Notes under the pieces: model-generated | Databases searched by the model: none | What the model was told of the DNA's origin: nothing | The model's input: only the letters and a program-made list of their open reading frames with translations | Assembly: GCA_964530135.1 (NCBI GenBank) | Contig: CAZGXN010000005.1 | Coordinates: 2,269 to 66,268, forward strand | Direction of reading: 5' to 3' | Origin: an uncultured Bdellovibrionales bacterium | GTDB lineage: Bacteria; Patescibacteriota; Minisyncoccia; Moranbacterales; UBA1568 | Length of the DNA stretch: 64,000 bases | Part shown: piece after piece, positions 3,673-56,455 of the stretch | How the letters are laid out: each line of letters opens with the position of its first letter | Numbering within the stretch: the first letter of the stretch is position 1 | Position numbers and translations under genes: made by a program

Positions 3673-4455
3673 TTACTCCTTCTCCTCTTCTTGTGCTGAT
3701 TCTTTTTTCACTTTCTTGGTAGATTTCTTCTCTTTTTCTTCGGATACAGCTTCTCCCCCATCAACCAACGCTCCCTCTGCCGAGAGAACTGAGAACTGGG
3801 AAACGAGAATAGCCACCGCTTGATTAAATGCTTCAACTGGAGTCAAGGTGCCGTCTGTTACGATCTCAAGGGTAATCTTGTCGTAATCTGTCCGCTTCCC
3901 GACCCGCATGTTTTCGACTTCATAATTGACACGCTTGATCGGCGTATAGATCGCATCGATTGCAATTTCACCGATTTCACGCTCCTCTTCCTCACGAGCC
4001 TCAACAGGTATATACCCTAACCCACGGTCGATAACGATGTCCATTTCGAACTCTGCCTTCTTATCAGTGAGCGTCGCTATGACTTGATCCGGATTTACCA
4101 CCTCGACTGAGCTCGGACACTTGATAGCCGCTGCGGTGACCACTCCTTCACCCTTAGATTTGAGTGTTACAGTAACAGCCTCGTCCGAGTGTGAGCGAAA
4201 ACGAACCTGCTTCATATTGAGGATAATCTGAACAACATCCTCCATGACACCCGGGATAGTTGAAAATTCATGTGAAACGCCCTTGAGTTTGACGGAACGC
4301 GCAGCTGCGCCAGGTAGAGAAGACAAAAGAACGCGACGGAGAGCATTCCCCAAAGTTGCTCCATAGCCCGGATAGCACCCGCCAATTTCAAGCTTACCGT
4401 GATTGACACCCAGAGGGGTGTACTGTGGCTGTTGTGGTGCAGTGATGTTTTGCAT
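3673..4455 (-). CDS. rpoA: DNA-directed RNA polymerase alpha subunit, N-terminal domain only, with a Lys/Glu-rich tail
   Basis: GYGATLGNALRRVLLSSLPGAA alpha-NTD signature. Only 260 aa, ending in EEKEKKSTKKVKKESAQEEEKE rather than an alpha-CTD. Confidence 0.88.
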   Translation of the reverse strand: MQNITAPQQPQYTPLGVNHGKLEIGGCYPGYGATLGNALRRVLLSSLPGAAARSVKLKGVSHEFSTIPGVMEDVVQIILNMKQVRFRSHSDEAVTVTLKSKGEGVVTAAAIKCPSSVEVVNPDQVIATLTDKKAEFEMDIVIDRGLGYIPVEAREEEEREIGEIAIDAIYTPIKRVNYEVENMRVGKRTDYDKITLEIVTDGTLTPVEAFNQAVAILVSQFSVLSAEGALVDGGEAVSEEKEKKSTKKVKKESAQEEEKE

Positions 4456-54584: not shown

Positions 54585-54737
54585 TCAAAACTTACAGCCC
54601 CATTGTACCATATTCGGGCTGGATATATATAATAAATTGTGTCTTTCTCGAATGGAACGACCAGAAAATACCCATCAACCAAGTAGAAACGGTCATGCCG
54701 TGCCCCTTCATGGTATTCATCACGCTTCTCTTTCTTG

Positions 54738-54808
54738 TCGGGGCGTCGGGAATCGGACCCGAACTACAAGACCCCCAGCCTTGCGTACTACCACTATACT
54801 ACGCCCCG
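54738..54808 (-). tRNA. tRNA-Pro (anticodon GGG)
   Basis: Acceptor CGGGGCG/CGCCCCG, anticodon loop CTGGGGG, T-loop TCCGATT. Confidence 0.72.
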
Positions 54809-54997
54809 TAACAAAAATAGTGTACCACTGTTAGTAGATTGTCGGTACACTCCGAAGGCTCATTCCCCATCCATCTCATGTACCCGATAGAACATGCCAA
54901 AACAGGATGAGCCTATCAAAATTCAGGCAAAATGAAAAGGCGTCCTTGTAGGGAGCGCCTTAGCTGTGCCGCAGTGCGGCAATACATCGATTGGCCG

Positions 54998-55201
54998 TTA
55001 GGCCGGCGGTCGTCGGATACCCAAGATACCGTGTTCCCGCAAATTTTTGGGTGTATCAGCAATATTGGGATTGCCAGTGCACCACGGATCATCATCCATA
55101 TCGGCATCAGCATCGGAACGGTGCACCACCGGATGATTCGTTGAAGCCACGGGTTGCGTGTGGTCTAGGCCACTGAGGTCGCCGCCTTCTGCATTATTCA
55201 T
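54998..55201 (-). CDS. possible small acidic protein (67 aa)
   Basis: ATG preceded by CAGGAGAAAG SD-like sequence. Composition is otherwise unremarkable and it may be spurious. Confidence 0.2.
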   Translation of the reverse strand: MNNAEGGDLSGLDHTQPVASTNHPVVHRSDADADMDDDPWCTGNPNIADTPKNLREHGILGIRRPPA

Positions 55202-55261
55202 CTGCTTTCTCCTGATTTACGGGGGGAATACTCCCCGAGCGATTGTTGGCGAAATGAAAAA

Positions 55262-55768
55262 TCAAAGATCACAGCCTGAGGCAATCCGGATTTGGGCCGG
55301 CGTAATCCTCAGGGACAGGTTCTTCACAAAAACCCGTCGAACATCTTCTGGCGGCCGGCAATTCCGGGATTCCACCGAGAGACAGCAAGCCTTGCTGGAA
55401 AAAACCAAGTGGCAATTCGTCTGCTGAGCATGCGGACAGATCATCCTCGCACCATATGAATGAGTGCTCGACTGAACCGGTCGGATACCACCCGGAGATG
55501 GGTGGGTTGCCAACTGATTCGGCGCCAAAGACGCAACGGGCGCATCATTCACAGAAAGTTCTGGGAGATTATCCATATTTCTGATACTCCTCTCAATTGT
55601 TGAAGAACTGTTGAAGAATGTTTCTGCGCCGGGTAACGCTTTAAAAAAACGAAACCCGAACACTGCCGGGCTGGTGTCTGCGATGAATTGTATTTTTGTA
55701 TTGACAAACCGTACCCGGCCGGAATGAAGTTTTTTTATCAGACTTCCTTCTCGCTTCACTCTGGCCAT
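55262..55768 (-). CDS. doubtful hypothetical ORF downstream of the 37-bp palindrome
   Basis: Open frame with unusual Ser/Arg/Pro-rich composition. Could be non-coding. Confidence 0.2.
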   Translation of the reverse strand: MARVKREGSLIKKLHSGRVRFVNTKIQFIADTSPAVFGFRFFKALPGAETFFNSSSTIERSIRNMDNLPELSVNDAPVASLAPNQLATHPSPGGIRPVQSSTHSYGARMICPHAQQTNCHLVFSSKACCLSVESRNCRPPEDVRRVFVKNLSLRITPAQIRIASGCDL

Positions 55769-55788
55769 GCACTGTTCGATGTCAATAT

Positions 55789-55825
55789 GATATAACACTT
55801 GACAAAAATTGTCAAGTGTTATATC
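55789..55825. promoter_or_regulatory. 37-bp perfect palindrome GATATAACACTTGACAA-AAA-TTGTCAAGTGTTATATC containing TTGACA on both strands
   Basis: 17-bp perfect inverted arms verified base by base. Lies 25 bp 3' of the ndk stop and overlaps a candidate TTGACA-17-TATCAT promoter for the minus-strand downstream region. Confidence 0.6.
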
Positions 55826-55849
55826 GCAACTTCTTTGATGTGTACGCCC

Positions 55850-56455
55850 CTACTCAAGAATCCCGTCAAGATTCACATCATACAGAATTTGTTCCTGAAC
55901 AAGGCGATACTTCAAGATGTCCGATTTTTCAAACCAGATTGGAATCTCTCGTTCAGCCTCCTCAGGACTATCTGAACAGTGCACCAGATTGCGAACCGCC
56001 CGATTATCGATAGACGAGAGTGCATATGAATCAACGGTCAGATCGCCGCGAATCGTACCCACATCCGAGGTTGTCGGTTCAGTCCCACCCACAAGTTTTT
56101 TCACAATTGCGACTGCTTGATTGCCCTCAACGACAAAGGCAAGTACTGGACCAGATGTAAAGAAATCGACATTTGCCTGAATGATATCTTTACCATATTC
56201 AATTGGCTCCTTTTCAATGGGAAGATTTTGGGCCTGACGATCATCGACAACCCGATGACCTTTTTTCAGAAACCACTCCTCATCTTTATTATAATGCTTC
56301 CAACACTGTTCGGCCCGCGGCACAACCAGACGCATTGCAACAAACTTGAGGCCCGTATTTTCAATCCGACTAATAATAGTCCCCATCAGTGAGCGCTGGA
56401 TAGCATCGGGTTTCAGAATAACCAGCGAACATTCTTTCTTTGGATGCAAAGCCAT
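55850..56455 (-). CDS. ndk: nucleoside diphosphate kinase (long form with insertion)
   Basis: LVILKPDAIQRSLMGTIISRIENTGLKFVAMRLV and active-site NLVHCSD. An ~60-aa insertion relative to canonical 140-aa NDK. Confidence 0.85.
   Translation of the reverse strand: MALHPKKECSLVILKPDAIQRSLMGTIISRIENTGLKFVAMRLVVPRAEQCWKHYNKDEEWFLKKGHRVVDDRQAQNLPIEKEPIEYGKDIIQANVDFFTSGPVLAFVVEGNQAVAIVKKLVGGTEPTTSDVGTIRGDLTVDSYALSSIDNRAVRNLVHCSDSPEEAEREIPIWFEKSDILKYRLVQEQILYDVNLDGILE

Follow-up and report, generated by a model that had tools for sequence, protein, structure and literature searches.

A perfect 37-bp palindrome lies immediately downstream of ndk in a chromosomal stretch of a Candidatus Moranbacteria (Patescibacteria/CPR) genome. 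We interpret it, with moderate confidence, as a composite of promoter and stem-loop placed where ndk meets a small-protein operon, which would also act on transcripts reading through from ndk. The stretch of DNA analysed, 64 kb in its whole length, is called the window below. The minus strand of the palindrome would supply a TTGACA -35 box, a 17-nt spacer and the start of a TATCAT -10 box, and transcription from this sigma-70-type promoter is predicted to start near 55780 and to proceed through a terminator-containing leader into two small genes, termed here ORF A and ORF B. At the 3' end of ndk read-through RNA the palindrome would fold as a 17-bp hairpin, at the place where relatives carry the intrinsic terminator of ndk. 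This hairpin may stop or attenuate the ndk transcripts or protect their 3' ends, and may thus insulate the regulated unit downstream.

The assignment of the host is based on homologues of its nucleoside diphosphate kinase, which bear the name Candidatus Moranbacteria or Moraniibacteriota. The local genes all lie on the minus strand, in the order nrdR, comEC, a gene for an MBL-fold protein, ndk, the palindrome, a stretch of ~900 nt, tRNA-Pro, a GT2 glycosyltransferase gene, galT and tpiA (Table 1), and the palindrome begins 24 nt past the ndk stop codon. Concerning the kinase itself, the Pfam NDK domain matches the 201-aa protein in two stretches, which indicates that, compared with the canonical enzyme of about 140 aa, it contains an insertion; this insertion is kept across the Moranbacteria homologues.

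Table 1. Coordinates of the features at the ndk locus and at related loci. Positions carrying a locus number (L) refer to that locus, all others to the window.
Feature	Position	Strand	Remarks
ndk (nucleoside diphosphate kinase, 201 aa)	55850..56455	-	PF00334, E 2.4e-36
Palindrome, 17-bp arms	55789..55825		minus-strand stem-loop holds the -35 box and all of the spacer and enters the -10 box
Palindrome 5' arm upstream of the -35 box (gene-sense strand)			GATATAACAC
-35 hexamer TTGACA	55810..55815	-	predicted sigma-70-type promoter; TTGAC invariant in the 5 palindromic loci
-10 hexamer TATCAT	55787..55792	-	17 nt from the -35 box
Structured 5' leader	55643..55777	-	homologous in L013, L010/L011 and L018
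Leader P1 hairpin	55717-55766	-	
Leader segment CCGGGTACGG	55709-55718	-	can pair with the 3' arm of the leader terminator
Leader terminator-like hairpin and T-run	55643-55672	-	
ORF A, 104 aa	55262..55576	-	six conserved cysteines; RBS GAGAGGAG 10 nt upstream of ATG
ORF B, 67 aa	54998..55201	-	AGGAG RBS; motif R.G.DD...NPN[IM]ADTP..L.EHG
GC-rich hairpin and T-run AAGGCGCTCCCTACAAGGACGCCTTTTCATTTT	54929..54961	-	likely end of the ORF A-ORF B transcript; tRNA-Pro next
tRNA-Pro	54737-54808	-	
Hairpin of L013			AACAACACTTGACA-TTATG-TGTCAAGTGTTGT, then ATCAT
Hairpin of L021/L122			CAACACTTGAC-TTTCCG-GTCAGGTGTTG, then TATTAT
Hairpin of L127/L128			arms as in L021, loop TTTTTG
Hairpin of L033			CCACCCTTGACA-TTTTA-TGTTAAGGGTGG, then TATGAT
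ORF A homologue	L013 3376-3720		
ORF A homologue	L127 3301-3651		
ORF B-type gene	L015 3303-3515		
ORF B-type gene	L016 3242-3517		
ORF B-type gene	L006 3823-4053		
ORF B-type gene	L022 3274-3492		
ORF B-type gene	L017 3318-3512		

The palindrome reads GATATAACACTTGACAA-AAA-TTGTCAAGTGTTATATC, with two arms of 17 nt each that are 100% complementary around a 3-nt centre. It is the longest short-loop perfect inverted repeat of the window, in which the next longest arms measure 12 nt and belong to ordinary terminators flanked by an A-run and a T-run, while the longest arm expected by chance was 11 nt in 30 dinucleotide-preserving shuffles. The stem is AT-rich, with G-C pairs at 5 of its 17-18 positions, and TTGACA occurs on both strands (plus, 55799-55804; minus, 55815-55810). 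Folding is strongly favourable as DNA and as RNA on both strands; the RNA fold reaches -22.9 kcal/mol with a z of about -5.6. An earlier note, made from the sequence of the window, had described perfect 17-bp arms around AAA, a length rare by chance, an AT-rich stem and TTGACA in both orientations, and all four descriptions agree with these results. It had also suggested a search for additional half-sites, and within the window the only exact matches to TATAACACTTGACAA are the two arms themselves. When up to 3 mismatches were allowed across the 64 kb, 3 further matches appeared, all isolated and none palindromic, so that the pattern of a dispersed repeat (REP, MITE) is not seen there. A REP-like or generic repeat element, which the note had considered, is excluded because the window holds a single copy.

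On the minus strand, TTGACA-17-TATCAT agrees with the consensus at 11 of 12 positions and is the top promoter-like site between 54500 and 56700. Relatives present a -35/-10 pair at the same place, ahead of a leader and small ORFs. In L010, L011 and L018 the aligned position upstream of the homologous leader carries TTGACT-17-CATAAT, the CATAAT of L010 and L018 being aligned with the -10 box of the window. In the loci with a palindrome, the equivalents directly after the 3' arm are TATCAT (L013), TATTAT (L021, L127) and TATGAT (L033). The predicted minus-strand promoter is therefore well supported by comparison with relatives, and the earlier note was right to regard it as plausible. Among the 19 best promoter-like sites of the window, a strong hairpin is found at this site alone, and a promoter inside a hairpin is thus not a general habit of the genome.

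Regarding termination, the palindrome is not a textbook intrinsic terminator, since its stem is AT-rich and no U-tract follows it in the window or in L013, while the canonical terminators of the window have GC-containing stems flanked by A- and T-runs. The minus-strand sequence continuing past the stem is ATATTGACATCG. No U-tract was found directly 3' of the window stem on the transcribed strand, and a terminator scan flags only the plus strand, where no gene ends. The hairpins of the window and of L013 continue with AUAUUGACAU or AUCAUACUGG, which argues against a terminator role, as does a proper terminator-like site ~115 nt further on, in the leader, which could end ndk transcripts anyway. 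In L021, L127 and L033, the hairpin together with its T-rich -10 region passes a simple, loose terminator criterion.

A comparison set of more than 100 ndk loci was collected. In most close relatives a GC-rich hairpin with a T-run lies 9-47 nt past ndk and is followed by a separate promoter, a structured leader and small ORFs. Four other lineages (L013, L021/L122, L127/L128 and L033) carry a promoter-embedding hairpin 3' of ndk at the same position as in the window. In all five cases the hairpin starts 21-37 nt past the ndk stop, TTGAC lies in the 5' arm and the 3' arm ends at the -10 box. As RNA in context these hairpins reach about -23 to -28 kcal/mol, with z between -3 and -6. A separate GC-rich hairpin with a T-run within 130 nt of the ndk stop was found in none of the 5 palindromic loci as against 29 of the 36 other close loci (Fisher 0.001, not corrected for phylogeny).

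Other arrangements of ndk terminators and promoters were observed within the first ~90 nt past ndk in L029, L036, L037, L051 and L053. There, a promoter follows the ndk stop directly, and a hairpin with a T-run (e.g. AGTGGTT....CCACTTTTTT) begins about 6 nt past TATAAT, so that the ndk terminator and the predicted start site of the following unit overlap. Moreover, the canonical ndk terminators of L014 (offset 24-42 past ndk) and L042 (offset 26-43) carry TTGACA in the loop, and in L042 the T-tract of the terminator appears to double as the -35 box of the next promoter (TTGTTT-17-TATAAT).

Aligned to one another, the five hairpins have 90.4% of their cells paired, as compared to 32-45% when the partner is slid. 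Both partners have changed in five pairs, and pairing is complete (100%) at the inner 13 pairs, a covariation signal drawn from five sequences that represent about three or four independent lineages. In L033, pairing is kept with three positions changed on both arms. The internal deviations are all G·T wobbles on the ndk-sense strand, which correspond to A·C mismatches on the other strand; examples are GTCAGG in L021 and L127 and TGTTAA in L033. Loop sequences differ between the loci, and L021 and L127 also show a 1-nt difference in loop length, the arms being spaced 6 nt apart in these two loci and 7 nt apart in most palindromic loci. The arm sequence AACACTTGAC/GTCAAGTGTT is identical at 19-20 of 20 positions in the window, L013, L021 and L127, against an identity of only about 72-74% in the flanking coding DNA; in the same relatives, the sequences of the ordinary ndk terminator stems differ freely. 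The conservation of the arms thus appears to exceed what pairing alone requires. Taken together, the palindrome is real and under selection.

The surroundings of the palindrome are highly variable. By tblastn, it is present in exactly the loci that encode ORF A, across two leader types, and the loci that have the first leader type but no ORF A (L010 and L018) possess an ordinary promoter. After the gene for one and the same NDK protein (P0047), L122 has the palindromic cassette, whereas L119-L121 have a GC-rich terminator with another promoter and other ORFs. The 89% DNA similarity of L122 and L119 breaks off precisely at the ndk stop codon (L119 3106, L122 2503). These comparisons suggest that the interval from ndk to the following housekeeping gene is a hypervariable hot spot of cassette swapping.

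Between the predicted promoter and ORF A there is a leader of ~200 nt, the first 135 nt of which are conserved in L013, L010/L011 and L018 with a mean column identity of 77%. An upstream segment, CCGGG[C/T]ACG, is complementary to the 3' arm of the leader terminator, giving a layout that looks like an attenuator or a riboswitch. The leaders of L021 and L127 have no detectable homology to that of the window. A covariance model of the leader (R1), run on 91 sources, matched its four training sequences only. Rfam at gathering thresholds yielded nothing besides tRNA-Pro in the whole window. The earlier note had suggested that an ncRNA might be encoded downstream of the palindrome and that Rfam models be run there; a scan of 54700-55900 with E up to 10 returned none besides tRNA-Pro, the only hit to pass, the rest being eukaryotic microRNA or lncRNA models with E of at least 0.39.

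The same note had found no convincing protein gene in 54840-55768, a view that is not upheld, as this region contains two small genes that have Shine-Dalgarno sites and are conserved in relatives. Its broader idea that something unrecognised downstream is under the control of the palindrome proved sound in that a conserved structured leader and these two genes were found there. ORF A belongs to a family with the motif C.H..TGC..F....CC.AV....C.PP..[IV]R...IRIA.GC. An exhaustive search returned 9 relatives (P0123-P0131, P0124 being the protein of L013), which puts the detectable family at about ten members in 1.8 billion representative proteins. Homologues are encoded in L013, L021/L122 and L127/L128, and the proteins are 30-42% identical across lineages. 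Public gene calls of 168 or 178 aa for ORF A are over-extended into the leader, and the extension is not conserved in L013. The ORF B motif is shared by the first small ORF past ndk in L006, L015, L016, L017 and L022. Genes for this type of protein, of about 65 aa, usually occupy the first position past ndk in Moranbacteria. When ORF A and ORF B served as queries in word-indexed homologue searches, near-identical copies alone were returned, and neither protein has a Pfam or a PDB match (for the ORF A family, by profile searches). AlphaFold models of ORF A had a pLDDT of 42 for the sequence alone and 51 with a 10-sequence alignment, too poor for a fold search.

Some repressor operators have dyad symmetry and overlap core promoters, for example those of the TetR/QacR type and the autoregulatory operators of toxin-antitoxin systems. 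A dimeric protein, possibly ORF A regulating itself, might bind AACACTTGACA-N5-TGTCAAGTGTT and block RNA polymerase, the potential to form a hairpin being incidental. Because of the arm conservation, the co-occurrence with ORF A and the lack of a U-tract in the window and L013, we regard this as a serious rival, albeit one that we can advance only tentatively. The dyad covers the -35 box, the spacer and the -10 box, the centres of its half-site cores, CTTGACA and TGTCAAG, lie 12 bp from each other, and it precedes a small two-gene operon, as in the known cases. The 19-20 of 20 arm identity holds despite the divergence of the coding DNA and the non-homologous leaders of L021 and L127. In addition, the palindrome follows the ORF A loci exactly, with an ordinary promoter in L010 and L018, and no other promoter-like site of the window has such a hairpin. 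However, no Pfam or PDB match marks ORF A or ORF B as a regulator or DNA-binding protein, the AlphaFold models being of low confidence, the 64 kb contain no second copy of the site, and common descent of the cassette is another explanation of why the palindrome and ORF A occur together. Furthermore, an operator fits poorly with the 1-bp difference in spacing in L021 and L127, with symmetry deviations that are all G·T and on one strand, and with the L033 arms, which differ at three positions on both sides and still pair. The stem-loop in the ndk-sense RNA, as in the composite reading, is favoured by these same compensatory changes, by the G·U-only deviations and the 1-nt change in spacing, and by the lack of a separate ndk terminator. 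The more specific proposal that the dyad is an autoregulatory operator and ORF A an undescribed small family of DNA-binding proteins, repressing its own hypervariable cassette that also bears an undescribed terminator/antiterminator leader, seems to us doubtful.

The remaining explanations carry less weight. The promoter and stem-loop could serve mainly as a site of homology or recognition for the exchange of small-ORF cassettes, as proposed for the phage elements discussed below, for which such shuffling has been described (PMC2839356). The hypervariability past ndk, the two unrelated cassettes that follow P0047 and the end of the L122/L119 similarity at the ndk stop are consistent with this, but each locus has a single copy with none at the other cassette boundary, no recombinase is encoded nearby and most cassettes have no palindrome, making a recombination site unlikely as the main role. 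It is very improbable that the element is a supercoiling-sensing DNA cruciform, in which the AT-rich palindrome would be extruded from negatively supercoiled DNA and hide the promoter. The perfect 17-bp arms, the 3-nt AT centre and the favourable folding of both strands in the window would suit such a structure, but the opposite strand would carry A·C mismatches in L021, L127 and L033, and the two-strand symmetry that a cruciform needs is therefore not what is conserved. Finally, we give hardly any credence to a plain promoter with a functionless palindromic shape, or to a bidirectional promoter. TTGACA on both strands would agree with the latter, a possibility raised in the earlier note, but the plus-strand -10 box would be TATCGC, relatives have no conserved -10 box on that side and no plus-strand gene follows, while a plain promoter is difficult to reconcile with arms far longer than expected by chance and with pairing maintained through compensatory changes in other lineages.

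Several known sites were also considered and rejected. The NrdR box has the form ACAC-N8-GTGT, as compared to ACAC-N17-GTGT here, and it was discarded on spacing although nrdR lies upstream in synteny. MerR-type promoters have a spacer of 19-20 nt and were set aside given the 17 nt found here. CIRCE/HrcA and LexA boxes, Xer/dif sites and integron attC sites were rejected on spacing or sequence.

A scan of metagenomes with the pattern AACACTTGACN{6,7}GTCARGTGTT matched 27 contigs. Hairpins containing TTGAC and followed by a -10 box recur in them between co-directional genes of unrelated contigs, without being homologues of the window site. Since the 27 contigs are heterogeneous and none is a Moranbacteria ndk locus, their hairpins are best regarded as convergent, and the idea that they form a regulon was rejected. 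In L101, for example, the match is a bidirectional terminator between the convergent genes dnaB and trpS, while L116 has hairpin-promoters between tandem paralogues at 794-820, 1833-1859, 2878-2904 and 4158-4184. A group of low-GC contigs (about 35%; L092, L093, L095, L102-L104, L106, L108, L109, L113, L115 and L116) carries tandem paralogous genes for repeat proteins with IPKGFNPTVGG repeats and no Pfam match. In this group one and the same cassette, at least 85 bp long, lies between the genes of each pair; it is composed of an A-run, AACACTTGAC-N7-GTCAAGTGTT, a T-run and TATATT 17 nt from TTGACA, and by this composition appears to be a repeated terminator-promoter unit. In L097 (about 1408-1472) and in L100, three direct repeats ACTTGACTCATGA stand immediately upstream of the palindrome AACACTTGACTCATGAGTCAAGTGTT, an arrangement that resembles iterons or multiple operators.

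With respect to described systems, the closest appear to be the PeSL (promoter-early stem-loop) cassettes of the T4-type phages RB49 and phi1 (Arbiol et al., 2010; PMC2839356), judging from shared anatomy and genomic setting. PeSLs occur in about 100 similar copies per phage genome, usually have GGGG...CCCC stems and lie directly before a Shine-Dalgarno site, and both their terminator and their promoter activities have been shown with lacZ reporters (PMC2839356). In both cases an upstream stop codon is followed by sigma-70-type -35 and -10 boxes, with a stem-loop between or overlapping them, and then by an orphan ORF; the stems contain G·T pairs, and the regions are hyperplastic and swap orphan-gene cassettes. 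At the window site, the promoter boxes likewise lie between a stop codon and an ORF, the stem-loop overlaps them and the orphan ORFs are in a hypervariable region. Unlike PeSLs, the palindrome resides in a cellular CPR chromosome, is known from sequence alone, has one copy in 64 kb rather than many flanking cassettes throughout a genome, includes the -35 box itself in an AT-rich stem and is followed by a leader of ~200 nt. It resembles an intrinsic terminator in having a stable stem-loop 24 nt past a stop codon, where relatives have canonical terminators, but the stem is not G+C-rich, and in the window the -10 region UAUCAUAUU stands where the U-tract would be. It differs from repressor operators, whose overlap of a dyad with the core promoter it shares, in the lack of a recognised regulator, the variable spacing, the strand-asymmetric wobbles and the compensatory L033 arms. 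Coupled or overlapping bacterial promoters and terminators, in which termination and initiation share one short stretch of DNA as they may do here, are the subject of a recent preprint (bioRxiv 10.64898/2026.08.19.745784). The palindrome itself thus calls for no new mechanism.

Both small-protein families, as well as the attenuator-like leader, are new and open to testing. As regards annotation, both small genes and the leader have been missed or mis-called, the public call being an over-extended ORF of 168 aa. Should the autoregulatory reading be true, the arms would be conserved because the ORF A protein reads them, and the cassette together with its promoter and stem-loop might be the unit swapped between CPR genomes. 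If, as we prefer, the palindrome is a composite of promoter and stem-loop, CPR/Patescibacteria chromosomes would share with T4-type phages a space-saving layout in which a promoter sits inside a stem-loop at the preceding stop codon, and this layout would be used where cassettes of orphan small proteins are exchanged. This matters for the prediction of transcription units in organisms for which hardly any transcript maps exist.
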